NCBI GenBank assembly: GCA_964538855.1
Contig: CAZIEY010000002.1
Span: 1,709 to 65,708 of the forward strand
DNA from: an uncultured Candidatus Saccharibacteria bacterium
GTDB taxonomy: Bacteria > Patescibacteriota > Minisyncoccia > Phycocordibacterales > JAACPR01
DNA length: 64,000 nucleotides
Direction: 5' to 3'
The number at the start of each line of letters is the position of its first letter. The first letter of the stretch is position 1. A model generated the notes under the pieces. It saw only the letters and a program-made list of their open reading frames with translations. It ran no database searches and was not told the origin of the DNA. The position numbers were made by a program, and so were the translations under genes. Of this stretch, positions 543 through 50,810 are shown one piece after another.

Positions 543-557
543 AGAATTTTAAAATTT

Positions 558-599
558 CTTGAGATTTTCTTTATAAAGATTTTAGACCAAATCCGTATA
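558..599 (+). promoter_or_regulatory. Conserved promoter-like module, copy 1 (aattttaRaatttcttRa..ttttctttataaagattttag-N10-tataATG), -10 abutting the start codon
   Basis: About 45 bp is near-identical to 36690-36735 and 11712-11771. TATAAT overlaps the ATG, so the transcript is likely leaderless. Confidence 0.5.
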
Positions 600-1010
600 A
601 TGGGATGCGTGAATGATTTTGATACTTGGAACAAAAAGAAGAAAGAAATTAGTGCGAGTCTAATCTATAAACACCCAAAAGCTCAAGAAATATGGCATTG
701 TCGTGTCGGTATCAATGTCGGGTGTGAGATATATGGCAAAGGCTCAAATTATGTTCGGCCTGTTTTGGTTATAAATGACGACGGTGAAGATAATTTTATT
801 GGAGTTCCGCTCACATCAAAAATCAAAAATACAAAATATTCACGCGTGATTCGCGAAGAAGGAGGAAAACTCGCTACAGCATTGACGTATCAAATCAGAT
901 CTTTTGATAAAAGGAGACTGATAGAAAAACATAGTACTCTATCAGATGCAGAATTTGATTTGGTATGTCAAACGGTAAAAAGGTTAGTCAATTTAAAACG
1001 ACCCAATTAA
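600..1010 (+). CDS. PemK/MazF-family endoribonuclease toxin-like protein (paralog 1), with no adjacent antitoxin ORF
   Basis: EIWHCRVG...VRPVLVIN...IGVPLTSK...QIRSFDKRRL matches the PemK/MazF pattern (GEIW..RPvlVis..vvvPiTs..qirtiDk.Rl). It is 70% identical to the 36736-37149 ORF. Confidence 0.65.
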   Translation: MGCVNDFDTWNKKKKEISASLIYKHPKAQEIWHCRVGINVGCEIYGKGSNYVRPVLVINDDGEDNFIGVPLTSKIKNTKYSRVIREEGGKLATALTYQIRSFDKRRLIEKHSTLSDAEFDLVCQTVKRLVNLKRPN

Positions 1011-1068
1011 GGGTCGTTGGGCTCTTGCGAGCAAAGATGGCCAATCCATCCTAGAACAATATTATATC
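1001..1068 (+). repeat. Conserved 3' element of three consecutive hairpins (CGACCC-aattaa-GGGTCG spanning the stop codon; GCTC-ttgc-GAGC; GATGG-ccaat-CCATC), copy 1
   Basis: Near-identical to 37135-37205. The first stem differs between copies by compensatory changes (CGACCC/GGGTCG versus ACGACCCC/GGGGTCGT). Confidence 0.5.
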
Positions 1069-1116
1069 AAAAAATTTTTACGAAAGTCAATCCAGCCCGT
1101 ATGATATAATTTTCAT

Positions 1117-2002: not shown

Positions 2003-3805
2003 GTGGGTATGTCTATCGATAAAACAAAATTTATTACTCCAACTCAACTAGCCAAGATGTTGGGTATTACTCGTGTTGCTGTTCATCAGAAAATTAAAAA
2101 AGGGGACATCAAAGCTGAGAATGTCGGCGATTCATCAAAACCAACTTTCCTAATTCCTAAAGACTCATTACCTGCTGAAATACGCGAACGTATTGAGAAT
2201 GAAAAAAAGAAAATAACTGAAAGTGTGATTGGAAAAAATATTCAACATCACGATCTCAATTTTGAAAAAGAACTATGGGCAGCTGCAGATAAGCTTCGTG
2301 GAAATATCGATGTTTCCGAATATAAAAATATCGTCCTCGGATTACTTTTCTTGAAATATATATCCGACGCTTTCTATAAACGTCGCGAAGAACTTGATGC
2401 GCTAACCCGCGATCAAAAGAACGAAGATTTTTATGTTAAAGATGACAAAGCTCGGGCGCAAATTCTGGAAACAAAAGATTTCTATAAAAGTGCCGGTGTG
2501 TTTTATGTCCCCGAAAAGTCACGATGGGAATATTTGCAAACAAAAACAATGCAATCTGATATTGGCCAGGTGCTTGATAAAGCCATGGATTATATCGAAG
2601 AAGATAACCGAGCTGAACTTGAAGGTGTACTTCCAAAGATTTATACACGAACAACGCTTGATCATTCTGTTATTGGTGAGCTCGTAAATATATTCTCTCG
2701 TATTTCATTCGATCACAACTTTGATCGAGAAAAAGATATTCTCGGACGCATCTACGAATACTTCCTTGGTCAGTTTGCTTCATCTGAAGGAAAACGAGGA
2801 GGCGAATTTTTTACACCTAGATCAATCGTCAAATTACTCGTTGAAATTCTTCAGCCTTACGAAAATGCACGCGTATTAGATCCTGCTTGTGGTAGTGGTG
2901 GGATGTTTGTCGCTATGGGTGAATATCTACGCAATCACAGACAGGATGCATCAAAGCTTGCGATCAATGGGCAAGAAAGTAATCAAACAACACTTCGTCT
3001 TGCAAAGATGAATCTTGCAATTCGAGGACTCTCTGGAAAGATTGAACTCGGAAATACTTATTATCAAGACAAGTTTCCTCACCTGCAGGCAGATTTCGTG
3101 ATTGCAAACCCTCCCTTTAACGGAGAGTGGGAACCATCAAAGCTTTCTGATAATGATCCACGTATCACTCTCGGCACACCACCAAGTGGAAACGCAAACT
3201 TTATGTGGGTGCAACATTTTGCACACCACCTTGCACCAAATGGTTTAGCCGGGTTTGTTATGCCAAACGGAGCACTTGCCGTATCTGGTAAAGAAGGAGA
3301 GCTTCGCAAAAAGCTCATCGAAGAAGATCTTGTTGAGGTAATTATTTCTTGTCCATCAAAGCTTTTCTATAACGTATCTCTTCCCGTATCTTTATGGTTC
3401 TTGGCAAAGAATAAGAGTGGTGACCGTTTCCGAAAACGATCCGGTGAAACATTGTTTATTGATGCTCGAGATACATTCGAACAGATTTCACGTAAGCAGG
3501 TTGTGTTTAATCCAGAACATATAGAGAAAATCTCTAACACCGTGCGTGCGTGGCGTGGAGAAAAGGATGCGGGAAAATACGAAGATGTATCTGGATTCTG
3601 TAAGTCGGCATCTCTAGAGGAGATAAAAAAGAATGGATATGTTCTTACCCCTGGTCGTTATGTTGGACTTGCAGATGTAGAAGACGATGGAATTTCATTT
3701 GAAGAGAAGATGAAAAAACTTTCATCTGAACTTCGGAATGCTTTTGTGAAAGGTCGTGATCTGGAAAAGGAGATTGAGAAGAATTTAAAAGAATTAGGAT
3801 TCTAA
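2003..3805 (+). CDS. hsdM: Type I restriction-modification N6-adenine DNA methyltransferase subunit M with an extra N-terminal HTH (excisionase/AlpA-like) domain of about 85 aa
   Basis: LWAAADKLRG (HsdM_N), the NPPFNG catalytic motif and the FxGxG AdoMet region. N-terminal ITPTQLAKMLGITRVAVHQKIKKGDIKAENVG is HTH-like. Confidence 0.9.
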   Translation: MGMSIDKTKFITPTQLAKMLGITRVAVHQKIKKGDIKAENVGDSSKPTFLIPKDSLPAEIRERIENEKKKITESVIGKNIQHHDLNFEKELWAAADKLRGNIDVSEYKNIVLGLLFLKYISDAFYKRREELDALTRDQKNEDFYVKDDKARAQILETKDFYKSAGVFYVPEKSRWEYLQTKTMQSDIGQVLDKAMDYIEEDNRAELEGVLPKIYTRTTLDHSVIGELVNIFSRISFDHNFDREKDILGRIYEYFLGQFASSEGKRGGEFFTPRSIVKLLVEILQPYENARVLDPACGSGGMFVAMGEYLRNHRQDASKLAINGQESNQTTLRLAKMNLAIRGLSGKIELGNTYYQDKFPHLQADFVIANPPFNGEWEPSKLSDNDPRITLGTPPSGNANFMWVQHFAHHLAPNGLAGFVMPNGALAVSGKEGELRKKLIEEDLVEVIISCPSKLFYNVSLPVSLWFLAKNKSGDRFRKRSGETLFIDARDTFEQISRKQVVFNPEHIEKISNTVRAWRGEKDAGKYEDVSGFCKSASLEEIKKNGYVLTPGRYVGLADVEDDGISFEEKMKKLSSELRNAFVKGRDLEKEIEKNLKELGF

Positions 3806-3812
3806 AAATATT

Positions 3813-4622
3813 ATGAAAGAAAATACATTTGAAACAATTAAAAGGGTGGATGATAACGGTAAAGAATACTGGGCATCTAGGGATCTTGCTAAAGTTTTAG
3901 AATATAGTGATTACCGTAATTTTTTAGGCGTTATTGACAAGGCGAAAATTGCTTGTGAAAACAGTGGCGTGGTTATCCACAAGCATTTCGTCGAAGCCAA
4001 CGAAATGGTTCCTATTGGATCTGGTGCGGAAAGGATGACAGATACTGTGCATCTCTCTCGCTATGCATGCTATCTTATTGTACAAAATTCTGACCCTACA
4101 AAAGTTGTCGTTGCAAAGGGTCAGACTTATTTTGCAATTCAAACTCATCGGCAAGAAAAGACAGATAGTTTAGCTGAGGATAATAATCGAGTCTTCTTGC
4201 GCGAAGAAATGAAGAAACATAATACTGGTTTAATGCAAACTGCATCACTGGCAGGGGTTGAAAGCTTCGCCATCTTTCAGAATGCTGGTTATAAAGGTTT
4301 GTACGGTGGACGTACTATGCAAGATATCCATACTGAAAAGAAATTGACTAAATCACAAAAGATTCTTGATCATATGAATAGTGAGGAACTAGCTGCAAAT
4401 CTATTTCGTGCCACGCAAACAGATGCAAAAATAAAACGTGAAAATATAAAAGGACAAGGAAATGCAAATCTTGCGCACTATGAAGTTGGACAGAAGGTTC
4501 GTAACACTATCGCTAACCTTGGTGGAACCATGCCAGAAGATCTTCCTACTCCTGATGCTATTGGAAAAGCTCAAACGAGGATAAAGAAGTCAAAAAACAA
4601 GAAACTTACTGATGGGAAATAG
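3813..4622 (+). CDS. DinD-like (DNA-damage-inducible protein D, Bro-N domain) protein, embedded between hsdM and hsdS
   Basis: FETIKRVDDNGKEYWASRDLAKVLEYSDYRNFLGVIDKAKIACENSG...VHLSRYACYLIVQNSDPTKVVVAKGQTYFAIQTHRQE aligns closely with E. coli DinD. Confidence 0.7.
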   Translation: MKENTFETIKRVDDNGKEYWASRDLAKVLEYSDYRNFLGVIDKAKIACENSGVVIHKHFVEANEMVPIGSGAERMTDTVHLSRYACYLIVQNSDPTKVVVAKGQTYFAIQTHRQEKTDSLAEDNNRVFLREEMKKHNTGLMQTASLAGVESFAIFQNAGYKGLYGGRTMQDIHTEKKLTKSQKILDHMNSEELAANLFRATQTDAKIKRENIKGQGNANLAHYEVGQKVRNTIANLGGTMPEDLPTPDAIGKAQTRIKKSKNKKLTDGK

Positions 4623-4631
4623 AAAGCCAAT

Positions 4632-5732
4632 ATGAGTAAATTAATAGAACAAATAAATAAAGAAAAAAGAGAAATGACTCTAGGCGATGTTGTTACTTTT
4701 CATCGAGGTTATGACTTACCTTTAAATGAAATAAAACCAGGTTCATATCCTGTTGTTTTTTCTAATGGACGAAGAGAAAACCATGCTGAGTTTAAAGTTA
4801 CGGGCCCGGGAGTATTTACTGGGCGTAGTGGATCTTTGGGTGGTATTTTTTATGTTGAAGAAAATTATTGGCCCCACAACACAACTCTCTATGTAAGTAA
4901 TTTTCACGGTAATGATCCAAAGTATTGCTACTATTTTTTGTCGTCATTTGATTTCGCAAAATTTAATGCAGGTACTGGTGTTCCTACTTTAAATAGAAAT
5001 CACATTCACGGAATACCTGTAAAAATACCAGATCTTCCAACTCAAAAGAAAATTGCTGAAATCTTGAGTGCGTACGATGCAAAGATTGAGAATAATAATC
5101 TTATCATTAAGAAACTTGAAGCGACCGCTCAAACGTTATTCGACGAATGGTTCATAAACTTTCGATTCCCTGGATACGAGAAGGTGAAATTTGTTGATAG
5201 TGAAATGGGAGAAATCCCCGAGGGATGGGAAGTTTTAAAACTTGGCGATATTTTTGATATTAAATATGGCAAGAATTTGCCGACCTCAAAAATAAGTAAA
5301 GAAGGTAATTTTCCAGTTTACGGCGCTGGCGGAGTTATAGGTTTTTATGAAAAGAAAAATGTTGATGAAAAAGTGATTTTGATTACATGTAGAGGTAATG
5401 GTAGTGGAACTATATGGAGAACAAATGGAGAAGGTTTTGTTACAAATAATTCATTTATGATCCTGCCTAAGAAGAATTTTAATTACTTTAATTTCATATC
5501 TATATATTTTTTATTTAAGAACAGTAATGTTTCTGCGGCGTTGTCTGGGTCAGCACAGCCACAAATAACGATAGATGGATTAAGTCCTATTCAAACTATA
5601 TTTCCTGATAGAAATTTATTAGAGTCTTTTCAAAAATTGACAACAGTTATGTTTGATTTAACGGATGAGTTACTTGAAGAAAACATTTCTTTAAGGTTGC
5701 AGAGAGATCAATTATTAGCAAAATTAATTTAA
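4632..5732 (+). CDS. hsdS: Type I restriction-modification specificity subunit S (two target-recognition domains)
   Basis: Two TRD-like halves separated by the conserved coiled region (KIAEILSAYDAKIENNNLIIKKLEATAQTLFDEWF). Operon context. Confidence 0.85.
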   Translation: MSKLIEQINKEKREMTLGDVVTFHRGYDLPLNEIKPGSYPVVFSNGRRENHAEFKVTGPGVFTGRSGSLGGIFYVEENYWPHNTTLYVSNFHGNDPKYCYYFLSSFDFAKFNAGTGVPTLNRNHIHGIPVKIPDLPTQKKIAEILSAYDAKIENNNLIIKKLEATAQTLFDEWFINFRFPGYEKVKFVDSEMGEIPEGWEVLKLGDIFDIKYGKNLPTSKISKEGNFPVYGAGGVIGFYEKKNVDEKVILITCRGNGSGTIWRTNGEGFVTNNSFMILPKKNFNYFNFISIYFLFKNSNVSAALSGSAQPQITIDGLSPIQTIFPDRNLLESFQKLTTVMFDLTDELLEENISLRLQRDQLLAKLI

Positions 5733-5736
5733 ATAT

Positions 5737-6348
5737 ATGACGAATATTGAAATAATATTAAAATTCACAGAATTATTACTTGCATGGCCAGTAACCGCTT
5801 TAGTTTTAGGTATTGTATTTATACTATATTTTAAAAATGAAATTAAAACTTTATTAAAATCTAAAAAAGTGAAAGTCGGGAATGTTGAATTTGATCAAAC
5901 CCTACAATCAGAAGAAGTTGAAGATAAAACTTCTAAAGATATAGAGCAGCCAGTAAATGGGCAGTATTTTTCTGATGAGCAAATTTCTCAACTAGGCCAA
6001 ACTATAAATAATCTTGAAAATGATTCAACACAAAAAAACCAAAAAATAAATGAACTTACAGCACTAGCTGTTCAATTAAATGAAAGAGCAGAAACATTTG
6101 AATTTTTGTATCTGAATACTTTTTTAGTCATGAATTCAAAAATTGCACTCAAACACTGGTTTAAAGATGGTTCAACCAAAGATTATTTTATGAGTAGTTA
6201 CCCTTTACCGGAAGCAATTGTAGATAAAAACCAAGAATTAAGTGCAATATTTAACGTGCTACTTGTAAATAATCTAATTGAGCAAGTTGGAGAAATATTT
6301 AGAATAAATGAAAAAGGTAAAAAATTCTTAGAAAAGATCGGAATGTAA
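5737..6348 (+). CDS. Hypothetical protein with an N-terminal TM helix, embedded between hsdS and hsdR
   Basis: ORF with 4 nt spacing to both neighbours. N-terminal hydrophobic LLLAWPVTALVLGIVFILYF. No recognisable motif. Confidence 0.5.
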   Translation: MTNIEIILKFTELLLAWPVTALVLGIVFILYFKNEIKTLLKSKKVKVGNVEFDQTLQSEEVEDKTSKDIEQPVNGQYFSDEQISQLGQTINNLENDSTQKNQKINELTALAVQLNERAETFEFLYLNTFLVMNSKIALKHWFKDGSTKDYFMSSYPLPEAIVDKNQELSAIFNVLLVNNLIEQVGEIFRINEKGKKFLEKIGM

Positions 6349-6352
6349 ATTT

Positions 6353-9300
6353 ATGAACCCACTAAACGAAAACAATTTAACAGAGCAATCACTTATCGAA
6401 TGGCTACAAGGTCAGGGCTATGAGTATGTCTACGGTCCAACAATAGCACCAAATCAACCTAACGCGGAGCGCGAGGATTTTCGAGGTGTTGTACTCAAGA
6501 ATCGACTTCTTACTTCTGTACGCCGATTCAACCCACAACTTCCTGCGCTACAAGCAGAACAAGTTGTTGACGATATCGCGGGATATCACAATGCTGATGC
6601 AATGATCGGTAATAAGGAAATGTTCACTCTTATTACTGAAGGGATGAAAAAAACATGGCAAGAGGACGGTATAGAAAAAACAGAAGTTGTTAAGCTTATT
6701 GATTTTGAAAATGTTGAAGCAAACGATTTCTTAGTAACAAATCAGTTTACCGTTCAGGGTGTAGAGAATGTTTGCCGTCTTGATGGTGTTATTTTTGTGA
6801 ATGGTATTCCACTCTCAGTTTTGGAACTCAAAAGTCCCGTGCGTGAAGAAGCTTCAATTGGTCAGGCGTATCGAGATGTGGAGTACTACAAAAAAGAAAT
6901 TCCAAAGATGTTTTTGTATAACCAAGTGCTTTGTTTGTCTGATCTTACAGAAGCTCGACATGGAACAATTTCTTCTTCGTGGGAACGATACGGAACATGG
7001 AAAGGTATGAATTCGGAGATAGATGCTCCAAGCAGTGTTACGGAACTCGAGGTTCTTGCAAAAGGTCTTTTTGATAAAAAACGACTTCTCGACCTCGTTC
7101 AAAACTTCATAGTTTTTGAAGCAGATGGTGACGGTGATGCAGTGACTTACACAAAGAAGATGGCTTTATATCACCAGTACTACGGTGTAAACAAAACAAT
7201 CGATAGCACTGTGCGATCAGTTGGTGGAGAGCAAGATCGAAAGATTGGTGTCTTTTGGCACACACAAGGATCTGGAAAGTCACTCTCAATGGTTTTTTAT
7301 GTGAACAAGACAAAACGTATTCCAGAACTTAAAAGCCCTGCGTATGTTTTTCTCACTGACCGTGAAGATCTAGACGACCAACTCTTTAAGACATTTAGTC
7401 GTACAGGATATAGCACTCTTGCTAAACGAGCATCAAGTATTAAGGATTTGAAAGATAAGCTCACCCATCTTGGAAGTGAACTCATTTTTACCACTATTCA
7501 GAAATTCCAAGATGATCCTGATGCGAATAATGTTTTAAGTGAACGAGAAAATATTATCGTTCTTACTGATGAGGCACACCGAACGCAATACAGTATGCTC
7601 GCAGGTAATGTGAGACAGGCTTTGCCACAAGCAAGCTTTTTGGGTGTGACAGGAACTCCACTTTCAAACCATGATAAAAACACAATGCGTGTTTTCGGTG
7701 ATATTGTGAGTTCATACAAAATCGGACAAGCAGTAAAAGATAAAGCGACTGTGCCGATTTATTATGAAGGTCGCCTTGTTCCACTCCATTTGGCGGATAA
7801 ATTTGTAGACAGTAAGTTAGATGAAATTCTCGGAGAGATTGTGGTGGATGAAAAAGTAAAAGCTCGTAAAGAATGGGCGGTACTTGAAGAAGTTGTTGGT
7901 GCACCAAGTCGTATAAAAGAAATCGCAAGAGACGTTGTCGCTCACTTTAATAATCGCCCAATTAATGGTAAGGCGATGGTTGTTACTATGAGTCGTTCAA
8001 TTGCAGTCGCGATGTATAATGCCATAAAAGAAATTTCAGGAAGTCCGGAATGCGCGGTGATTATTTCTGGTATGGATGATTTTTCTAATCAAATTCAATC
8101 AGAGCATGATGTAAAGAAGCTCGAGAAGAGATTCAAGAAAATTAATGATCCGTTACGTTTGGTGATTGTATGTGATATGTGGCTAACAGGTTTTGATGTG
8201 CCAAATTTACACACGATGTATCTTGATAAGCCTCTTAAAAATCATGGATTAATGCAAGCAATTGCACGTGTAAATAGAGTATATAAAGATAAACCAGGTG
8301 GATTGATTGTGGATTATATTGGTATTGCCGAAAATTTAAAAAAGGCACTTGCTGTGTACGACAGTGATGTACAAAAAGAGGCAATGATTCCATTGGATGA
8401 AGTTATATTTGAAATGAAACAACTTCATGGAGAAGTTGCGTTATATTTTTCAGCAGTCGATTTTATTGGCTGGCGAGCAAAGAAGGGGGTAGAGTTGGTT
8501 GAATTTTTTCAGCACGCACTTAACGAAGTTATTTCCGAGAATGGTCGTTTATCAGATGAACGAAAAATGAGATTCATTGGTTTGGTTTCAAAATTATCTC
8601 GATTGCATGCACTTGTAATGCCTGCCGAACCAGCAATGAGTATTACGGGTGATGTGCGATTCTTCCAATCAATTAGCGAGTCTGTCAGCAAACAGACTTT
8701 TATACCTGGAATTATTTTTCCAGAAGCAACCGAGAGTGCTATCCGTAGTTTGGTGCATGATTCTGTACAAGCTGAAGGTGTGATTGATTTATTTACGAAA
8801 GCAGGAGAAGAGAGAAAAAAAATTTCAATTTTCGATGCGCGTTTTGCTGATGAAATCAATAAGACAAAATATAAAAACTTGGCAATTGACACGATTCGAA
8901 GAATGCTCGATGAGGAGATAAAAGTTCGTTCTCGTGTTAACAAGGCGCGCTATGAGTCTATGCTTACATTACTGACAGAACTTATCGCAAAATACGAAAA
9001 TAATGTGATTAGTTCTGCGGAAATTATTAAACACTTATTACAAGTTGCTGCAGAAATTAAAGAACTCGATAAGGAGAGCGAGGAGTTGGGCTTATCTTCT
9101 GATGAAGTTGTATTTTATGATACTCTTACTAGCGATCCAGAATTAAAAAAAGCAGGAATTGATATTAAAGAGTTCGTGAAAGATCTAACGAAGCGGGTTC
9201 GAAGAGATTTAACTATTGATTGGACTAATAATGAAACGATTAAAGCACGTATTCGTCAAAATGTTCGCCTGCTGATTATTCAAAAAGGTGTATCTGATAT

Positions 9301-9376
9301 GGTCCACACAGAACGTTTAATCGAATCGATTTATCAGGAAACTGTCAGGGTGTATAGGGAATATGTTCCGGCATAA
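6353..9376 (+). CDS. hsdR: Type I restriction enzyme endonuclease subunit R
   Basis: DEAH-box helicase motifs (TGSGKS-like FWHTQGSGKS, VLTDEAHRTQ), 1007 aa, operon context. Confidence 0.9.
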   Translation: MNPLNENNLTEQSLIEWLQGQGYEYVYGPTIAPNQPNAEREDFRGVVLKNRLLTSVRRFNPQLPALQAEQVVDDIAGYHNADAMIGNKEMFTLITEGMKKTWQEDGIEKTEVVKLIDFENVEANDFLVTNQFTVQGVENVCRLDGVIFVNGIPLSVLELKSPVREEASIGQAYRDVEYYKKEIPKMFLYNQVLCLSDLTEARHGTISSSWERYGTWKGMNSEIDAPSSVTELEVLAKGLFDKKRLLDLVQNFIVFEADGDGDAVTYTKKMALYHQYYGVNKTIDSTVRSVGGEQDRKIGVFWHTQGSGKSLSMVFYVNKTKRIPELKSPAYVFLTDREDLDDQLFKTFSRTGYSTLAKRASSIKDLKDKLTHLGSELIFTTIQKFQDDPDANNVLSERENIIVLTDEAHRTQYSMLAGNVRQALPQASFLGVTGTPLSNHDKNTMRVFGDIVSSYKIGQAVKDKATVPIYYEGRLVPLHLADKFVDSKLDEILGEIVVDEKVKARKEWAVLEEVVGAPSRIKEIARDVVAHFNNRPINGKAMVVTMSRSIAVAMYNAIKEISGSPECAVIISGMDDFSNQIQSEHDVKKLEKRFKKINDPLRLVIVCDMWLTGFDVPNLHTMYLDKPLKNHGLMQAIARVNRVYKDKPGGLIVDYIGIAENLKKALAVYDSDVQKEAMIPLDEVIFEMKQLHGEVALYFSAVDFIGWRAKKGVELVEFFQHALNEVISENGRLSDERKMRFIGLVSKLSRLHALVMPAEPAMSITGDVRFFQSISESVSKQTFIPGIIFPEATESAIRSLVHDSVQAEGVIDLFTKAGEERKKISIFDARFADEINKTKYKNLAIDTIRRMLDEEIKVRSRVNKARYESMLTLLTELIAKYENNVISSAEIIKHLLQVAAEIKELDKESEELGLSSDEVVFYDTLTSDPELKKAGIDIKEFVKDLTKRVRRDLTIDWTNNETIKARIRQNVRLLIIQKGVSDMVHTERLIESIYQETVRVYREYVPA

Positions 9377-9384
9377 AGTTTTTA

Positions 9385-9825
9385 ATGACATTCGAACACT
9401 CACAAGATAAAATTTTCTTCGCACAACTGCTCGCCGGCGGTTCTGTTAATGTGCTCGAACAAAAATATAGCGAACTATTCGATTTTCGAAATCCGCTTAT
9501 AAAACGAAAAGAGTTCAACGCTATTCGACCAAATCTTCTAAAAAGTTTAGTCGAAAAATACGGTCATACATGTCAGCTGCATATTCACCCGGAATGTAAT
9601 TCTGACGGTGCATTGGAAGTCGATCATATTATCCCTTTATCAACCAATGTCCTGAATAAAGAAATTCGACATATGCAACGTATTCCACCTGCAAAAGTTC
9701 CAGCGCAAAGCTTTGGTTCTAACAACATAAAAAATATGGCGTTAGCTTGTCCTAGATGCAATTCTCGAAAAAAACATAGAATTCTCGCCGAACTTACAGT
9801 GAAACTTTTGCAATTGCGGTTTTAA
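9385..9825 (+). CDS. HNH endonuclease
   Basis: HIHPECNSDGALEVDHIIPLS...N...LACPRCNSRKKHR (HNH motif with zinc-binding Cys pairs). Confidence 0.7.
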   Translation: MTFEHSQDKIFFAQLLAGGSVNVLEQKYSELFDFRNPLIKRKEFNAIRPNLLKSLVEKYGHTCQLHIHPECNSDGALEVDHIIPLSTNVLNKEIRHMQRIPPAKVPAQSFGSNNIKNMALACPRCNSRKKHRILAELTVKLLQLRF

Positions 9826-10338: not shown

Positions 10339-10361
10339 TGGTGTGATGATATAATGCTTAT

Positions 10362-11258
10362 ATGGAACAATTTCCCACACCCCGCAAAGAATCTGGTATA
10401 AATCGCGTTGTTGGTTTTGAGAGTGAACCACAGGCAGAGCAGATGGCAACGTCATTTTTTCGACGTAGATTCGAGCACAATCAAATAATACCGGGATATG
10501 AAATTGAACAAACTGCTGAACAGGCTGAACTCATCAATCGTATGAATGTTCAGGTAAGAGATTTTTTGAAACGGTACGGAATTGATTCGATTGATATTAC
10601 CGCACAGAATATTCATATTATAGATAAGCCTAAATTTACACCAGAAGAAATTCGTCAATTAAAAGATGGACCCGGAGATGTGGTTGGTTATCATGATCCC
10701 GAACGACAGTGCATTGTTGTAATGCAGGATTATAATGAAGATAAAGCAAAATTTTTTCGGATACTTGTGCATGAAATGTTTCATATGCAATCTTTTGTAT
10801 CGTATCAGAAAACTACTCGTGAATGTGCAGAGATTGGTTTGGCAAAGGGTGATGTGGAAGCTCAGCTTACGATGCGTCGATCAGGTTTTTCTATACGAAA
10901 AGCAGATAGTGATACAATTTTGTTTAATAAATTAAATGAGGCCATAATCACAGAGCTTGAAATTTTGTTTGTTCAAGAGTATTTATCGACCTGGCCAGAG
11001 CTCGCGGATGGTCGGCGTGTCGAGACGCTTACATATGCATACAGCAAAGAGTGTGCCCAATTGCGTGAATTAATCTCGGAATTATTTGAGAAAAATAAAG
11101 ATATATTTAATTCGTCGGATGAAGTGTTCAGAATGTTCGTCGATGCAACTATGACGGGAAGGTTGCTTCCTATAGCTCGTCTTATCGATACGACTTTTGG
11201 TGCGGGTGCATTCCGCAAGTTAGGCCAAGATACCCAGAGGGAATTAGGGAAAAAGTGA
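10362..11258 (+). CDS. Hypothetical protein with an HExxH zinc-metallopeptidase-like motif
   Basis: ILVHEMFHMQSF contains HEMFH. Confidence 0.4.
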   Translation: MEQFPTPRKESGINRVVGFESEPQAEQMATSFFRRRFEHNQIIPGYEIEQTAEQAELINRMNVQVRDFLKRYGIDSIDITAQNIHIIDKPKFTPEEIRQLKDGPGDVVGYHDPERQCIVVMQDYNEDKAKFFRILVHEMFHMQSFVSYQKTTRECAEIGLAKGDVEAQLTMRRSGFSIRKADSDTILFNKLNEAIITELEILFVQEYLSTWPELADGRRVETLTYAYSKECAQLRELISELFEKNKDIFNSSDEVFRMFVDATMTGRLLPIARLIDTTFGAGAFRKLGQDTQRELGKK

Positions 11259-11700: not shown

Positions 11701-11711
11701 TAATAAAAAAA

Positions 11712-11771
11712 TTTAGAATTTCTTTAACTTTTCTTTATAAAGATTTTAGCTCGCATCAGTATAATGACACG
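11712..11771 (+). promoter_or_regulatory. Conserved promoter-like module, copy 3 (same about 45 bp element as 558-599 and 36690-36735)
   Basis: aatttagaatttctttaacttttctttataaagattttag-N10-tataATG. Confidence 0.5.
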
Positions 11772-12157
11772 ATGCGCAAGCAGGCCAATAACTTTGCTTT
11801 CATTGATGCTCAGAATTTAAATTTGGGTATTGCATATTTGGGTTGGAGATTGGATTTCGAGAAATTCCGAATATATTTATCAGAGAAATATTCAGTGAGA
11901 AAAGCTTATTTATGCATCGGATATATTCCAGGAAACGAAATTTTATACACTAGATTGCAACATATGGGATACGTATGTATTATCCAGCGACGGTGACTTC
12001 TATTGCTTAGTTGAATATCTGTTGAGAGAAAATAAGTTAGAGATGCTTTTGGTTCCAGATGAGAGAAGGTATTCTGGCCTACTCAAAAAACTGAGTCAGC
12101 CCGATAAAAATATTTTTGAATTTCTGAATCGAAAGCGACCGCAGCTCGAATTAAAAT
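11772..12157 (+). pseudogene. NYN (LabA-like/PIN-like) nuclease domain gene interrupted by an apparent +1 frameshift near 11940-11975
   Basis: Frame A carries FIDAQNLNLGIAYLGWRLDFEKFRIYL...CIGYIPGN and stops at 11996. Frame A+1 continues DTYVLSSDGDFYCLVEYLLRENKLEMLLVPDE... to 12157. Together they reconstitute a complete NYN domain. Confidence 0.5.
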
Positions 12158-12281
12158 GAAAAGGCTTTGCAAGGGACGGAACCTTTGCAAAACCTTTTCG
12201 TCGTGATGTGTTAAATATAGCAAAAATTTCACAAAAGTCAATCCAGCCATTTCAGATAAAAATAGTGCTAAAATACACAAT

Positions 12282-20986: not shown

Positions 20987-22120
20987 ATGCTCGAAAAACT
21001 TCGCTCCTCACCATATCTCAAGATTCTTCTTTTCTTCGTATCATTCGTATGGTTCTTGAGATTTTCAGGAACAGCGTTGCCTGTGTACTTTATAAAAAGC
21101 GGACTCACATTTCCACAGATTTCATTTGGTATTACACTTTCGATTGTGGGACAGTTGTTCGGTGTAGTGTTGCTCGCTCGTCTCAAGATAATAAATCGCC
21201 ATGCGTGGTATGTCGCGCTTTGTTTATATATCGTCACCTTCTGTCTCTACGTCGTCGCACCGTTCTCTGGATTTTATTTCACCGCGGCATTTTTATCTGG
21301 AATTGGATCCATCTTTTTCTACGGCCCGTACGGTTTATCGATGTTTTCCATTTTACCTCGCGATAAAACTGGATCGGGAAGCGCAATGTTTTTTAATTTG
21401 CTTGTGCTCGTCGGAATTATCGCTCCAATCTTTTCTGCGATCGTTGCTGGCTGGTCAATGTACACACTTCTCGGTCTCTCGATATGTTTCGCAGTGCTCG
21501 CAGGATTCTTTACTCGTTTACCGGCACCTGTTCGTGTAGATTTTTCTTTGCGTGAATCTCTTGTTGAAGTTCGTAATTTACGATTACCGATTTTTCTGCA
21601 TGGCATACATGAATCAATGAGCTATATCATTCCACTTTTCACCCTCACACTTTTGCCAGAGTTTTTAGAATTTGGAAGTTTCGGTACGGCTATGGCACTT
21701 GTCGGTGTGGTTGCCAGTCATGTCGTTGGGAATTTTTCAGATAGGCTCAAAACAAAGAAGAGACTCGTTTCACTTTGTGCGTTTGCACTCGCCGGAGTCT
21801 CTGTGCTCTATGCGTTTCCAATCTTCAAAACTGGAATCGTGCTGTGGGCTGCACTTAATATTGTGAATAATATTGTCGATCAAATTTACGATCAAACTTC
21901 GGTTGCATTTATTTTGGATCAAGCCTCGTCACTTGTGAAATCTATTTTTGGAAGGGAATTATATATGAATGTAGGTCGGCTCGTAGGGATGTGTATTGCA
22001 TTTCTCGGCTTCCTTTTTCCGCCGTTTCTACCGTACGCAATTATTATTTTTGCACTCGCCATGTGTGGATTTGGTGTTATTGTGATGAAGATGAAACAGA
22101 CTGAGAAAACTCTGGTATAA
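20987..22120 (+). CDS. MFS-like transporter (about 12 TM)
   Basis: Repeating TM helices, 377 aa. Confidence 0.5.
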   Translation: MLEKLRSSPYLKILLFFVSFVWFLRFSGTALPVYFIKSGLTFPQISFGITLSIVGQLFGVVLLARLKIINRHAWYVALCLYIVTFCLYVVAPFSGFYFTAAFLSGIGSIFFYGPYGLSMFSILPRDKTGSGSAMFFNLLVLVGIIAPIFSAIVAGWSMYTLLGLSICFAVLAGFFTRLPAPVRVDFSLRESLVEVRNLRLPIFLHGIHESMSYIIPLFTLTLLPEFLEFGSFGTAMALVGVVASHVVGNFSDRLKTKKRLVSLCAFALAGVSVLYAFPIFKTGIVLWAALNIVNNIVDQIYDQTSVAFILDQASSLVKSIFGRELYMNVGRLVGMCIAFLGFLFPPFLPYAIIIFALAMCGFGVIVMKMKQTEKTLV

Positions 22121-22127
22121 TTTACGC

Positions 22128-22652
22128 ATGGATCGCTTCTTTGTATCAATTATTACTATCGGAATTGTTTTCGGTGCCCTTGTTTTTCTTTTTGGAATAC
22201 GAGCCACCGAAAATATCGACGCGTCTTTTTCAGCAAGGTTCGAATATAGCCCAGAATATTTGTTTGATTTTATTAGCGATGTTTCAAAATATCCGGATCG
22301 CAAAAAGGACATAGAGAGTCTTGAAGTACTTAAACGTCAAGGTCAAAAAATCGTCGCGTGGCGCGAAAATTATAAAAATGGTACATGGCTAGAATACGAT
22401 TTAGTTCGAGAAACCTACCCAAAAATATTTGAGATTGAATTGGTAAATAGTTCCAATGATCATACCGCGTTGATTACATATTCACTCGGTGAGACCGACG
22501 GATTCACAGAAATCGTTTTGACTGAAAAAGGGAAAATCGAAAACACCTTTAGGCGGGGATTGCGTTCGCTTTCCGGCGATGATTCATTTCTTGAATCACA
22601 AATCAAATGGCTTCGCGTCGCAATTCAAACCGAACAAATTAATCGACCATGA
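22128..22652 (+). CDS. Hypothetical protein with an N-terminal TM anchor
   Basis: ORF overlaps the next gene by 4 nt. Confidence 0.4.
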   Translation: MDRFFVSIITIGIVFGALVFLFGIRATENIDASFSARFEYSPEYLFDFISDVSKYPDRKKDIESLEVLKRQGQKIVAWRENYKNGTWLEYDLVRETYPKIFEIELVNSSNDHTALITYSLGETDGFTEIVLTEKGKIENTFRRGLRSLSGDDSFLESQIKWLRVAIQTEQINRP

Positions 22653-36735: not shown

Positions 36736-37149
36736 ATGGGGTGCATGAAAGATTTTGATAGTTGGAATATCAAGAAAAAGCTTATTAATAAACACAAATC
36801 TCTTCAGCATCCTAAAATAGGTGAAATTTGGTGGTGTCGAGTTGGGCTTAATATTGGAGGTGAAATATACGGTAAGAGTATCGATTACGTGAGACCAGTT
36901 CTTGTTATAAATTGTGAGGGTGATGAGAATTTTATCGGTGTCCCGCTGACTTCTAAAATAAAAAATAGAAAATATGCTTGTGTTATTATGGAAGATGACG
37001 GGACACTTGCGACAGCGTTAGTGTATCAAATTAAATCTTTTGATAAGCGAAGACTGGTAGAAAAGCATAGTACCTTATCGAATGAGTATTTCAATAAAGT
37101 CCTTGAAATTATTAGGATTTTGATCGGTAAAAATTTAACGACCCCGTGA
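36736..37149 (+). CDS. PemK/MazF-family endoribonuclease toxin-like protein (paralog 2)
   Basis: EIWWCRVG...VRPVLVIN...IGVPLTSK...QIKSFDKRRL. Paralog of 600-1010. Confidence 0.65.
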   Translation: MGCMKDFDSWNIKKKLINKHKSLQHPKIGEIWWCRVGLNIGGEIYGKSIDYVRPVLVINCEGDENFIGVPLTSKIKNRKYACVIMEDDGTLATALVYQIKSFDKRRLVEKHSTLSNEYFNKVLEIIRILIGKNLTTP

Positions 37150-37205
37150 GGGGTCGTTCGGCTCTTGCGAGCAAGGATGGTCAATCCATCCTAGACCACT
37201 ATTAT
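37135..37205 (+). repeat. Conserved three-hairpin 3' element, copy 2 (ACGACCCC-gtga-GGGGTCGT with the stop codon in the GNRA loop; GCTC-ttgc-GAGC; GGATGG-tcaat-CCATCC)
   Basis: Aligns with 1001-1068. Its 3' end abuts the stop of tsaD on the opposite strand. Confidence 0.5.
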
Positions 37206-38395
37206 ATCGCGGTAGATGATAAAGTCAAATTTCCCTCAGCTTTAATTTCCGGACAAATTTTCGTCACGACGCGTTGCGCTTTCAAAAACCCAGCAATTGC
37301 GATCATTAACGCATTGTCGGTTGTTGCGTGCATTTCCGGAATGAGAACTTTGACGCCGTCGGCTTCTAATTTTTTAAAGGTTGCACGAATGTGAGTGTTT
37401 GCAATCACACCACCGCCGATAATTAGAGTCTGTGCACCATGTTCGTGCAGCGCGCGTTTCGTTTTTTCAAATAATACTTCGGTGACGGCGTCTTCGAATT
37501 CGCGAGCAATATCTTTTTGAGTGGCTTCATCCACGTTGAATTTTTGTTGCAAATCAGGTTTCGCTTTTTGATCGGTTAAATAATAGAGCACCGCCGTTTT
37601 GAGGCCAGCAAAAGAAAAATCAAAATCCTTGCTATGAATCATCGGACGAGGAAATTGCGCAGTGTGCAGTAATTTCTCCTCACGTGCCCGCGCTGCCAAT
37701 TTCGAAATTTGTGGACCACCAGGATATGACAAGCCCAATAATCGCGCCACTTTATCAAACGCTTCGCCAACTGCATCATCGCGTGTTTGTCCGATTAATG
37801 CGTAGTCGCCCCAATTTCGCACCAAAATCAATTCGGTGTGACCTCCGGAAATCAAAAGTGCCACCGCAGGGAAGGCAAAATTATGCATATGCTCATCCTC
37901 TTTCAAAACTGACACGATGTGACCTTCCATATGATTTGTCGGCATGAGGGGAATTTGCCACATGTATGACAGCGCACGCGCCACGTTAATGCCAACCCAT
38001 AATGCAGGCTCGAGTCCTGGTCCTGACGTCACTGCAATTACATCAATGTTTGGTTTTTTAATGCTCGTTACAAATTCAAAAAAAGTTTCAGCAAGGCCTG
38101 GATATGGTGACAAAATGTCGCTGATTTTTGCCCGCTGTTCGTTGGATGGTAATGTGCGGAGTTCTTCTTCCATTTCAGTTTCCTGAAGAAGCGCATGCAA
38201 AAGGGGAATGATATTTCGGGCATGCTCACGCTTTGCAATAGTTGGCATGACGCCACCGAATGGTTTGTGGGCTTCAATTTGCGAATTGACGACTGTGCCG
38301 AGTGTTGTATATGAAAGCTCGCTCCCATTCACGGTTGCTTCTATCAAGGCGAGAGCGGTTTCATCACAACTGGTTTCAATCCCGAGGATTTTCAT
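37202..38395 (-). CDS. tsaD: tRNA N6-adenosine threonylcarbamoyltransferase
   Basis: MKILGIETSCDETALALIE and Kae1/TsaD family motifs. Confidence 0.85.
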   Translation of the reverse strand: MKILGIETSCDETALALIEATVNGSELSYTTLGTVVNSQIEAHKPFGGVMPTIAKREHARNIIPLLHALLQETEMEEELRTLPSNEQRAKISDILSPYPGLAETFFEFVTSIKKPNIDVIAVTSGPGLEPALWVGINVARALSYMWQIPLMPTNHMEGHIVSVLKEDEHMHNFAFPAVALLISGGHTELILVRNWGDYALIGQTRDDAVGEAFDKVARLLGLSYPGGPQISKLAARAREEKLLHTAQFPRPMIHSKDFDFSFAGLKTAVLYYLTDQKAKPDLQQKFNVDEATQKDIAREFEDAVTEVLFEKTKRALHEHGAQTLIIGGGVIANTHIRATFKKLEADGVKVLIPEMHATTDNALMIAIAGFLKAQRVVTKICPEIKAEGNLTLSSTAI

Positions 38396-43982: not shown

Positions 43983-44004
43983 TTTACCACAGTCTTGTCT
44001 GTAA

Positions 44005-44126
44005 ATAAAATAGAAAAACTCTAAATTTTGAAAGTCTGGTTGAGCACAAAAAACAAATCACACTCTTGTTACAGAGCGTGATTGTGCGACCCGAGGACTT
44101 CAAAATTTAGAGTTTTTCTATTTTAT
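44005..44126 (-). repeat. Hairpin-enclosed structured element, family 2 copy 1. A 30 bp perfect outer stem encloses the conserved internal-loop motifs AGTCTGGTTGAGCA / GCGACCCGAGGACT and an inner hairpin that reads as an intrinsic terminator on the minus strand
   Basis: ATAAAATAGAAAAACTCTAAATTTTGAAAGTC...GACTTCAAAATTTAGAGTTTTTCTATTTTAT. Located at the 3' end of ftsZ. Confidence 0.55.
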
Positions 44127-45310
44127 TACTTCCGATGACGTCGTAAAAATGATGGAACTGCACCCCATTCGTCGTTGTCATCTTCGGTGACGAGTGCCTT
44201 AGTTTCTTTTTTTTCAACTGGCTCACTTCGTTTTTCAACATTCAAAGAGTTAAAGATGCGACCTCCGGTAGCAGGAGCCTCTGCGATCGGCTTCACTTCT
44301 TCAACTGGTTTTGGTGTTGTGGTACCAAATAATGAACGTTTTGTGGTGTTTGCGCCATCAGGAAAGCCTGCTGCGACAATAGTAACTTTGATGTCACCTT
44401 TCTTCAATTTATCGTCATTAACGGTTCCGAAAATAACACGTGCATCTTCGTCCATTGATTCGGTGATAATTTTTGCAGCTTCTTGAATTTCGTGCATAGT
44501 CAAATCTTCACCACCTGCAATAGAGAAGAGAATGCCTTGAGCACCATTAATAGAAACGTCGAGGAGTGGGGAATTAATTGCCATTTTCGCAGCTTCTTGA
44601 GCGCGATTCTCTCCGTTTGCAATACCAACACCCATGAGTGCAGAACCAGAATCCTTCAAAATAGTTCGCACATCGGCAAAGTCGATGTTGATTTTTCCAG
44701 GAGTTGTAATCAAGTCAGAAATACCTTCAACGGCTTGGCGCAACACGTCATCACACATTGCAAATGCATTTGATGCTGTTGTTTCTTTTGAAATTTGGTT
44801 TAACAGTCGATCGTTTGGAATTACAATAATCGCATCCACTTCTTTTTTGAGTTCAGCGAGAGCTTGCTCAGCGATTTTCATTCGGTGCTTACCTTCAAAG
44901 AAAAATGGTTTTGTTACTACTGCAACAGTAAGTGCATTCGATTCGCGAGCGATTTGCGCCGCGACAGAAGAAGCGCCTGATCCGGTTCCACCACCAAGTC
45001 CGCATGTGAGGAAGACCATGTCGGCACCTTTGATTGCTTCTTGAACTTCTTCTTTCGTTTCTTCGATTGCGCGTCGGCCGATTTCTGGATTCATTCCAGC
45101 ACCAAGACCTTTGGTCAAGTTTTTACCAATGTGAATTTTTTTCTTTGCAAGAGATCCGTGTAAATCTTGCGCGTCGGTATTGATCGCAATAAAATCTACG
45201 CCTTTGACCTTGCTATTAATCATGTGATTAATAACGTTGAGACCGGAACCTCCTACACCAACAACTTTGATGCGTGCAAATGTCTCGATTTCTGGTTTAA
45301 CTTGTGGCAT
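44126..45310 (-). CDS. ftsZ: Cell division protein FtsZ
   Basis: GGGTGSG tubulin signature, IKVVGVGGSG. Start placed at MPQVKPE. The ORF track extends further upstream from an alternative TTG with poor RBS spacing. Confidence 0.9.
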   Translation of the reverse strand: MPQVKPEIETFARIKVVGVGGSGLNVINHMINSKVKGVDFIAINTDAQDLHGSLAKKKIHIGKNLTKGLGAGMNPEIGRRAIEETKEEVQEAIKGADMVFLTCGLGGGTGSGASSVAAQIARESNALTVAVVTKPFFFEGKHRMKIAEQALAELKKEVDAIIVIPNDRLLNQISKETTASNAFAMCDDVLRQAVEGISDLITTPGKINIDFADVRTILKDSGSALMGVGIANGENRAQEAAKMAINSPLLDVSINGAQGILFSIAGGEDLTMHEIQEAAKIITESMDEDARVIFGTVNDDKLKKGDIKVTIVAAGFPDGANTTKRSLFGTTTPKPVEEVKPIAEAPATGGRIFNSLNVEKRSEPVEKKETKALVTEDDNDEWGAVPSFLRRHRK

Positions 45311-50689: not shown

Positions 50690-50810
50690 AAAATAAACTA
50701 AAACCCTAATTTTAAAAGTCTGGTTGAGCATCAACACAAAACGCACATTCATTGTTGAATGTGCGTGATGCGACCCGAGGACTTTAAAATTAGGGTTTTA
50801 GTTTATTTTG
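50690..50810 (-). repeat. Hairpin-enclosed structured element, family 2 copy 2. A 29 bp perfect outer stem of different sequence encloses the same conserved motifs AGTCTGGTTGAGCA / GCGACCCGAGGACT. The inner hairpin reads as the rpsA terminator on the minus strand
   Basis: AAATAAACTAAAACCCTAATTTTAAAAGTC...GACTTTAAAATTAGGGTTTTAGTTTATTT. The 3' arm overlaps the last codons of rpsA. Confidence 0.55.

Follow-up and report, generated by a model that had tools for sequence, protein, structure and literature searches.

Introduction

Toxin-antitoxin modules with an RNA antitoxin are already known. In the type III systems ToxIN, CptIN, and TenpIN, an endoribonuclease toxin with a Kid/MazF-like fold is inhibited directly, as a protein, by a structured RNA, and the antitoxin consists of tandem repeats that precede the toxin gene on the same strand and that the toxin processes. 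The ToxN-family proteins are, to our knowledge, not members of the Pfam PemK family. In the type I pairs txpA/RatA and bsrG/SR4 of Bacillus subtilis and par RNA I/RNA II of Enterococcus faecalis, the antitoxins are antisense RNAs that overlap the toxin gene at its 3′ end. The present work concerns three small nuclease cassettes in a 64,000-nucleotide (nt) stretch of DNA from an uncultured Candidatus Saccharibacteria bacterium (contig CAZIEY010000002.1; the whole stretch is called the window hereafter), two of which (loci 1 and 2) carry a PemK/MazF-family endoribonuclease gene and the third (locus 3) a NYN-domain nuclease pseudogene. We report that the element at the 3′ end of the two PemK cassettes is a predicted convergent small RNA (sRNA) gene, most likely that of an RNA antitoxin, and that PemK and NYN nucleases are each paired with a separate cognate RNA family.

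Among described systems, the nearest is the module on plasmid pVir of Campylobacter jejuni, where, in the passages of two later papers that mention the work, Shen et al. 2016 are credited with an antisense sRNA antitoxin, CjrA, and a protein toxin, and where the plasmid is said to be stabilised by this pair (PMC10470494, PMC7826846). In the literature on cjpT, orphan MazF, and PemK RNA antitoxins we found no description of a family-wide small RNA, and we found no published account of such an sRNA partner for “solo” PemK proteins, of a NYN/sRNA pair, or of the cassette architecture shared in Patescibacteria.

Predicted small RNA genes opposite the PemK genes

The two PemK loci contain the following convergent features.

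609..1010, plus strand: locus 1 PemK/MazF-family endoribonuclease gene; probable leaderless start GTG 609, annotated alternative ATG 600
992..1054, minus strand: locus 1 predicted small RNA, ~63 nt, three hairpins; ends inferred from the promoter and the U-run
1061..1090, minus strand: locus 1 small-RNA promoter, TTGACT-N18-TGATATAAT; 11/12 matches with a TG extension, top site in the region
36745..37149, plus strand: locus 2 gene of the PemK/MazF family; start probably ATG 36745, or else ATG 36736
37130..37194, minus strand: locus 2 predicted small RNA, ~65 nt, with the three hairpins seen at locus 1; covariance-model match 37128-37193(-), 61.6 bits
37201..37228, minus strand: locus 2 small-RNA promoter, TTGACT-N16-TATAAT; 11/12 matches, top site in the region

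A first-pass annotation of the window had described the same three-hairpin element after both PemK genes and had read it as the passive 3′ end of a promoter-to-hairpin unit. The element is indeed present at both loci, as 72 nt that are 88% identical (997-1068 vs 37137-37208) and more conserved than the coding DNA (72%), but it is a predicted minus-strand small RNA gene with its own promoter rather than a passive end. At locus 1, the RNA has the hairpins GAUGG/CCAUC, GCUC-GCAA-GAGC, and AACGACCC/GGGUCGUU, the last followed by a U-run; it overlaps the final ~19 nt of the PemK gene, whose stop codon lies inside the terminator loop, and it is matched by the covariance model at 987-1053(-) with 56.5 bits (E 4.5e-16) and has a fold z-score of -3.0. 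The locus 2 RNA, with a fold z-score of -4.6, has a terminator (AACGACCCC-UCAC-GGGGUCGUU and then AAAUUUUUA) that spans the stop codon, a minus-strand terminator being called at 37158-37137, and the -10 box of its promoter overlaps the tsaD stop codon. With locus 3 included, the small-RNA promoters match at 11/12, 11/12, and 10/12 positions, each is the best site in its region, and they are near-consensus sigma-70 promoters. A search of the window and 12 loci against Rfam, at gathering and E-value thresholds, returned no relevant family and no ToxI-like match; the known “pemK RNA motif” gave no match either.

Conservation of the small RNA among PemK relatives

The PemK subfamily comprises 1,618 clusters at 50% identity (E <= 1e-10), and its relatives were sampled as 80 metagenomic loci with 33-62% protein identity, which gave 69 distinct downstream regions. 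A minus-strand promoter with at least 10/12 matches was found in 48 of these regions, as compared with 3 on the plus strand, 1.4 in shuffles, and 2 and 0 in coding-sequence controls, and the -35 box lies +70 to +125 nt beyond the end of the protein match. Hairpin loops were of the GNRA or UNCG type in 68/130 cases on the minus strand and in 4/126 on the plus strand; with tetraloops almost confined to the minus strand, the functional strand of the RNA is therefore the minus strand.

The RNAs fall into several sequence classes with one layout, in which a short 5′ tail rich in A/U is followed by one or two hairpins and then by a G+C-rich terminator hairpin. The covariance model of class 1, the window type, found 21 copies, all antisense to PemK, and in the window only the two expected ones. 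The alignment of the window-type RNAs was built with the covariance model, MAFFT having misaligned hairpins 1 and 3, and 91.6% of its cells are paired (34-58% in slid controls). Changes on both sides were seen in 12 of 18 pairs, vs 3.2 in shuffles, none of the 500 shuffles scoring as high, while the middle hairpin, UUGCUCG-NRA-GAGCC, is near-invariant.

PemK proteins without a protein antitoxin

The assignment to the PemK/MazF family was borne out by the Pfam search that the first-pass annotation had proposed, since both proteins exceed the cut-off of PemK_toxin PF02452 (23.1 bits), locus 1 with 48.6 bits (E 1e-12) and locus 2 with 51.4 bits (E 1.4e-13). Both also match solved MazF/EndoA structures (E 1e-8), in alignments that bring together the VRPVLVI and PLT(S) segments. 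Against the NCBIfam MazF equivalog, the proteins reach only 17-23 bits vs the 120 needed, and they are therefore not E. coli MazF orthologs. Arg25 and Thr48 of B. subtilis EndoA we take to be the catalytic residues, counterparts of the conserved Arg and Thr/Ser. In the family alignment, R53 and T72 do not vary, and they fall on the EndoA (4mdx) segments VRPVLVI and ITAQ; from these two residues, the window PemK toxins are probably active enzymes. The paralogs, of 133-137 amino acids (aa), are 63% identical at the protein level, somewhat below the earlier estimate of about 70%.

Homologs begin with MKDFD, and GTG 609 and ATG 36745, each 7 nt past the TATAAT box, are therefore the probable starts; of the two options offered earlier, it is the in-frame codon three codons downstream that is favoured and not the tataATG itself. 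The sequence that follows is part of an N-terminal extra segment of ~25 aa (KDFDxWNxxKK) in this subfamily.

Six-frame lists of open reading frames (ORFs) at loci 1 and 2 contain no conserved small ORF and no adjacent protein antitoxin, in agreement with the first-pass annotation; small ORFs over the 3′ element were considered as peptide antitoxins and set aside, their frames differing between the two loci. The window loci thus share with the type II systems (MazEF/PemIK/EndoAI-EndoA) a homologous toxin, as the PF02452 and EndoA matches indicate, but they have no adjacent MazE/PemI-like gene, and their promoter abuts the toxin start codon. With no protein antitoxin, the window system is not type II. 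Neither are these toxins “orphan”, as they had been called, since each PemK gene has a convergent small RNA gene, a candidate antidote, inside its cassette. Annotation pipelines give all of the subfamily the label “type II toxin-antitoxin system PemK/MazF family toxin” despite the missing protein antitoxin; these PemK genes would be reclassified by a convergent sRNA partner that is conserved and has no Rfam entry.

A NYN nuclease locus with a different small RNA

Locus 3 has the same order of features.

11772..12159, plus strand: NYN-domain nuclease pseudogene; ATG 11772, frame change near 11985, ~38 aa missing
12152..12207, minus strand: locus 3 predicted NYN-linked small RNA, ~56 nt; fold z-score -4.2
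12214..12241, minus strand: locus 3 small-RNA promoter, TTGACT-N16-TATATT; 10/12 matches with TG, top site in the region

Three-frame translations of this locus, compared with 165-aa homologs, revealed a deletion of ~38 aa together with a frameshift. Once joined, the reading shares 72% identity with P0159, a PF01936 protein of 165 aa, and has 828 homologs, but the NYN domain is not intact, the joined reading scoring 18.2 bits vs the Pfam PF01936 cut-off of 24.2. A NYN gene does stand behind the same promoter as the PemK genes, as had been claimed, whereas a functional gene starting at the tataATG does not; what remains is a pseudogene whose start is ATG 11772.

The locus 3 RNA consists of the 5′ tail AUCACGACGAAAA, one long hairpin with the loop UUCCGUC, and a U-run. 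A convergent promoter and a conserved RNA were present at 5/5 NYN loci (the one in the window and four independent homologs, 47-60% identity), with the consensus 5′-AUCACGACGAAA(A/G)GGUU.UG....GG-UUCCGUC-CC....CA.AGCCUUUU, in which the tail and the loop are invariant and the stem shows compensatory changes. The architecture thus reaches a second nuclease class.

The Campylobacter pVir homolog

By tblastn, plasmid pVir of C. jejuni 81-176 was found to carry a member of the family, which is 43% identical to the locus 2 protein (E 1e-25) and has the N-terminal FDxWN motif in common with it. From the plasmid sequence, a minus-strand promoter, TTGATT-N17-TGATATAAT, was predicted ~80 nt beyond the PemK stop codon. 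A differential RNA sequencing (dRNA-seq) map published by Dugar et al. 2013 places a transcription start site (TSS) at 31119(-), with a step height of 16164 and an upstream sequence exactly as predicted (PMC3656092, Table S5), and assigns to the toxin gene, CJJ81176_pVir0047 (405 nt), a TSS at 30608(+) with a step height of 28 (PMC3656092), that is, ~580-fold more 5′ ends for the small RNA than for the toxin mRNA. The sRNA, CJpv3, extends from 31119 to 31043 (77 nt) and was seen on a Northern blot (PMC3656092, Table S12). The pVir PemK gene ends at 31038, so that CJpv3 stops 5 nt beyond the stop codon, and its fold comprises three hairpins, of which one is capped by a GAAA loop. CjpT is probably pVir0047 (PemK), and CjrA is probably CJpv3.

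The pVir module resembles the window cassettes in its PemK-subfamily toxin, in a convergent sRNA that starts ~80 nt past the stop codon from a promoter with a TG-extended -10 box, and in a three-hairpin RNA whose terminator lies beside the stop codon. It differs in the 26-nt leader of its toxin mRNA, the genes of the window being apparently leaderless, and in its RNA, which is unrelated in sequence to the window RNAs; the window cassettes, unlike it, are chromosomal (Patescibacteria) and have a common 5′ module and a NYN sister cassette. The comparison links a Campylobacter plasmid-stability module to a family abundant in Patescibacteria, where the cassettes lie beside defence and essential genes. 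The same PemK subfamily, at 37% identity over 98% of the query, also occurs in the Campylobacter prophages CJIE4-1 to -5 and in the phages PC10 and CJLB-13, where the copies are annotated “toxin MazF” or “PemK-like”.

Proposed action of the small RNA

We propose that each cassette may be a self-contained toxin-antitoxin-like module of two convergent transcription units. First, a weak promoter, with a perfect -10 box but without a -35 box and placed behind the 5′ module, would give a leaderless mRNA for the RNase: at loci 1 and 2 an endoribonuclease of the MazF/PemK family, at locus 3 a NYN nuclease whose gene is now a pseudogene. Second, a near-consensus sigma-70 promoter ~80 nt past the stop codon would direct an abundant, structured RNA of ~56-65 nt toward the nuclease gene, ending at a bidirectional terminator that spans the toxin stop codon. 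The small RNA would be the antidote, made in excess of the toxin mRNA, and the pairing of a weak toxin promoter with a consensus sRNA promoter fits such an excess, as measured on pVir.

The first-pass annotation had guessed at an RNA antidote, and the guess gains support from a candidate that lies within the cassette and has its own minus-strand promoter and covarying stems. That the small RNA is an antitoxin, by whatever mechanism, we consider likely; within this, action by protein binding comes a little short of an even chance and action by antisense pairing lower, function and mechanism both being inferred. The favoured mechanism is that the RNA would bind the RNase directly and inhibit it, in the manner of type III but with a single convergent copy. 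It is favoured because unpaired RNA segments stay the same from locus to locus while the proteins share only 47-60% identity, namely UUGCUCG-NRA-GAGCC in the PemK class and AUCACGACGAAA with the UUCCGUC loop in the NYN class, whereas a cis-antisense RNA, being complementary by construction, has no need for conserved unpaired tails, loops, or a GNRA hairpin. Both toxins are RNases with RNA as their natural ligand, which fits direct inhibition as well. In its full extent, that PemK/MazF and NYN RNases are each restrained by a dedicated single-copy convergent sRNA that binds the enzyme, in a repeat-less type III-like arrangement, the proposal is a tentative one.

An endoribonuclease toxin with a structured RNA antidote is what the window system would have in common with type III, and direct inhibition would match as well. 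The window RNA, in contrast to type III antitoxins, is single-copy and lies downstream, on the opposite strand, under its own promoter; without upstream repeats, the window system is not canonical type III.

The strongest alternative, though an unlikely one in our estimate, is a type I-like RNA that acts by antisense only, pairing over the ~20 nt it has in common with the 3′ end of the toxin mRNA and making no contact with the protein; the pairing could lead to cleavage by RNase III, with the stabilising 3′ hairpin lost, or could block translation termination. In its favour, the toxin gene runs toward the small RNA and shares with it ~19-20 nt that include the stop codon, and the cassettes have the type I feature of a cis-encoded small antisense RNA with its own promoter, such an RNA having been mapped experimentally in the pVir homolog. 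The 3′-overlapping type I pairs of Bacillus and Enterococcus offer precedents, with convergent toxin and RNA genes, a common bidirectional terminator, and a strong RNA promoter facing a weak toxin promoter. Type I toxins, however, are small membrane peptides and those here are RNases, and par also needs 5′ complementary repeats, which were not found here, where the overlap is only ~20 nt. The window system fits a loose definition of type I, and does so only via the short 3′ overlap. The pVir system, the only characterised relative, is called “antisense sRNA ... type I” in the passage of a later paper that mentions it (PMC10470494). CJpv3 ends 5 nt outside the coding sequence, so that any overlap depends on where the toxin mRNA ends. 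When the sRNAs were compared with the first 60 nt of the toxin mRNAs, no cognate-specific complementarity was found (mean duplex energy -14.2 kcal/mol for cognate vs -13.7 kcal/mol for non-cognate pairs, ranks uniform); pairing with the 5′ end of the toxin mRNA was rejected on these indistinguishable energies, and the usual type I block of translation initiation is therefore unlikely. Antisense action would, moreover, leave the invariant unpaired sequence across diverged loci superfluous.

The reading of the small RNA as an antitoxin has its own difficulties. A promoter with at least 10/12 matches is missing in 21/69 relatives, some contigs being truncated and some promoters weaker; the counts of G-U pairs (41 vs 43) are of no help in telling the strands apart; an AlphaFold2 model from an 8-sequence alignment had a predicted local distance difference test score (pLDDT) of 59.7, too poor for a fold search or for inspecting any RNA-binding surface; and the role of the conserved 5′ module is not accounted for. 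The missing 5′ complementarity removes the commonest type I mode and does not establish protein binding.

If direct RNA binding holds true, many of the “solo” MazF/PemK toxins that are now annotated as type II, a large share of them, would be accounted for, the NYN nucleases would form a new toxin class with an RNA antitoxin, and two-promoter cassettes of ~550 bp would be accumulating in arrays and hotspots of the reduced Patescibacteria genomes.

The shared 5′ module and leaderless starts

Upstream of the nuclease genes, the three loci have a common module.

545..602, plus strand: locus 1 5′ module and toxin promoter; -10 TATAAT 596-601, exact 21-mer 565-585
11709..11766, plus strand: locus 3 5′ module and promoter; -10 TATAAT 11760-11765
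36681..36738, plus strand: locus 2 5′ module and toxin promoter; -10 TATAAT 36732-36737

The 21-mer TTTTCTTTATAAAGATTTTAG occurs in three exact copies in 64 kb (565, 11729, and 36701) vs 0 expected, and the three-copy module as a whole measures 61 nt with 80-89% identity (542-602, 11706-11766, and 36678-36738). The shared upstream sequence of ~45 bp that had been reported is thus real and longer than claimed. It is also no generic promoter within the 64 kb, where the only three copies are all at nuclease cassettes, and a collection of genome contigs that did not include the source genome yielded only three chance matches to the 21-mer, in unrelated organisms. Among the relatives, a module of the same type stands upstream of PemK and NYN genes at loci L007 and L088-L091, and the units of a Parcubacteria array have TTYTTTATnAnGATTTTAGGT-N10-TAGGRT, which is homologous to that of the window. 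Loci 1 and 3 have, in addition, a common 34-nt 3′ end (1064-1097 and 12215-12248).

The promoter scan found no -35/-10 pair for the toxin promoter of locus 1, which has no recognisable -35 box and no TG extension. The palindrome CTTTATAAAG was considered as an operator and rejected as a defining feature, since it is not kept in the homologous modules of L088-L091 (CTTTATCAGG, CTTTATAATG). The 5′ module is thus neither a palindromic operator nor a -35 box and may be a site of activator binding or a UP-like element.

The layout TATAAT-N6/7-start was found in 38/53 PemK relatives, so the cassettes do have the arrangement that had been taken as a sign of leaderless mRNAs. It is not special to them, however, since a TATAAT-like box 6-10 nt before the start codon precedes at least 20 of the 64 window genes, valS included, and Shine-Dalgarno-like sequences are rare. 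Leaderless architecture is a property of the genome and not of the cassette. Examples of leaderless-type starts are listed here.

1104-1119: leaderless-type start
10340-10364: leaderless-type start
22105-22130: leaderless-type start
36625-36650, minus strand: leaderless-type start

Genomic context and spread of the cassettes

The reported contexts, locus 1 between two NUDIX genes and locus 2 between valS and tsaD, were confirmed. By the named relatives of its valS, the organism belongs to the Patescibacteria and is Parcubacteria/Paceibacteria-like. The tsaD-valS slot (window 36625-37201) holds a Janus/Ocnus-family (PF05005) gene in relatives whose valS is 90-94% identical, as follows.

L096 2057-2440: Ocnus-family gene in the tsaD-valS slot
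L098 2079-2435: Ocnus-family gene in the tsaD-valS slot

In the more distant relative L097 (valS 82%), it is occupied by another PemK, of 30% identity, that has an sRNA of its own, and by a 148-aa gene. The slot looks like an insertion hotspot. A Parcubacteria contig carries a PemK-NYN-PemK-PemK array, each unit with its own sRNA promoter and 5′ module. Contig L002, from another organism, has five PemK+sRNA cassettes in tandem (3370-8393), with G+C-rich hairpins between the units; its PemK genes contain in-frame TGA at conserved Trp positions (EIWW), which implies an alternative genetic code.

The hairpins could be the recombination or transposition ends, similar to attC sites or miniature inverted-repeat transposable elements (MITEs), of a portable selfish cassette that swaps its nuclease cargo, a reading we hold to be improbable. 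The same 5′ module and 3′ end around different cargo, the two tandem arrays, and the varying contents of the tsaD-valS slot among relatives speak for it. On the other side, the three cassette junctions showed no target-site duplication, no convincing terminal inverted repeats, and no adjacent recombinase, the window cassettes are dispersed rather than in an integron-like array, with junctions that lack the marks of attC sites or MITEs, and the hairpins are already explained as an RNA gene by their covariation and one-strand tetraloops. Of the portable selfish cassette proposed earlier, the variable nuclease cargo of a cassette family thus holds, while a transposition mechanism at the three junctions does not; as a model it is compatible with the sRNA antitoxin explanation on spread, but not on the function of the hairpins.

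Most improbable is that there is no antitoxin at all. The proteins would then be RNases that are orphan or have been domesticated, the 3′ element would serve as a bidirectional terminator or as an insulator, and the minus-strand promoter would be incidental or would damp the gene by transcriptional interference. For this reading, the hairpin of the terminator is bidirectional, convergent promoters can work via RNA polymerase collision, and solo toxins are common. Against it, the promoter, RNA length, tetraloops, extra non-terminator hairpins, and primary sequence are kept at 33-62% identity, the NYN family keeps the same layout with a different RNA, and the pVir homolog has as its RNA a discrete 77-nt species of very high abundance. 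More than half of toxin homologs, and >50% of genes within the largest families, appear solo (PMC2701414), and an sRNA partner would answer part of this puzzle.

Other elements of the window

Between loci 1 and 3 lies a type I restriction-modification system (window 2003-9825), so that cassettes flank a defence island; the order there is HsdM, a Bro-N protein, HsdS, an unknown gene, HsdR, and then an HNH-like gene (Pfam labels taken from contig L001, which is identical). A direct repeat of 23 nt, TGGGTGGTTATAGTTAAAGTTGC / TGAGTTTTTATAGTTAAAGTTGC, occupies 1632-1654 and 1672-1694 with a spacing of 40 nt; it lies downstream of the second NUDIX gene and precedes a Cys-rich ORF of 67 aa. A long-hairpin element of ~115-130 nt, which has no credible Rfam match (only spurious miRNA-precursor models), occurs in two copies between convergent genes (44000-44130 and 50695-50810); its inner arms are conserved (AAGTCTGGTTGAGCA ... 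TGCGACCCGAGGACTT), its apical hairpin is variable, and its outer arms are A/T-rich and complementary.

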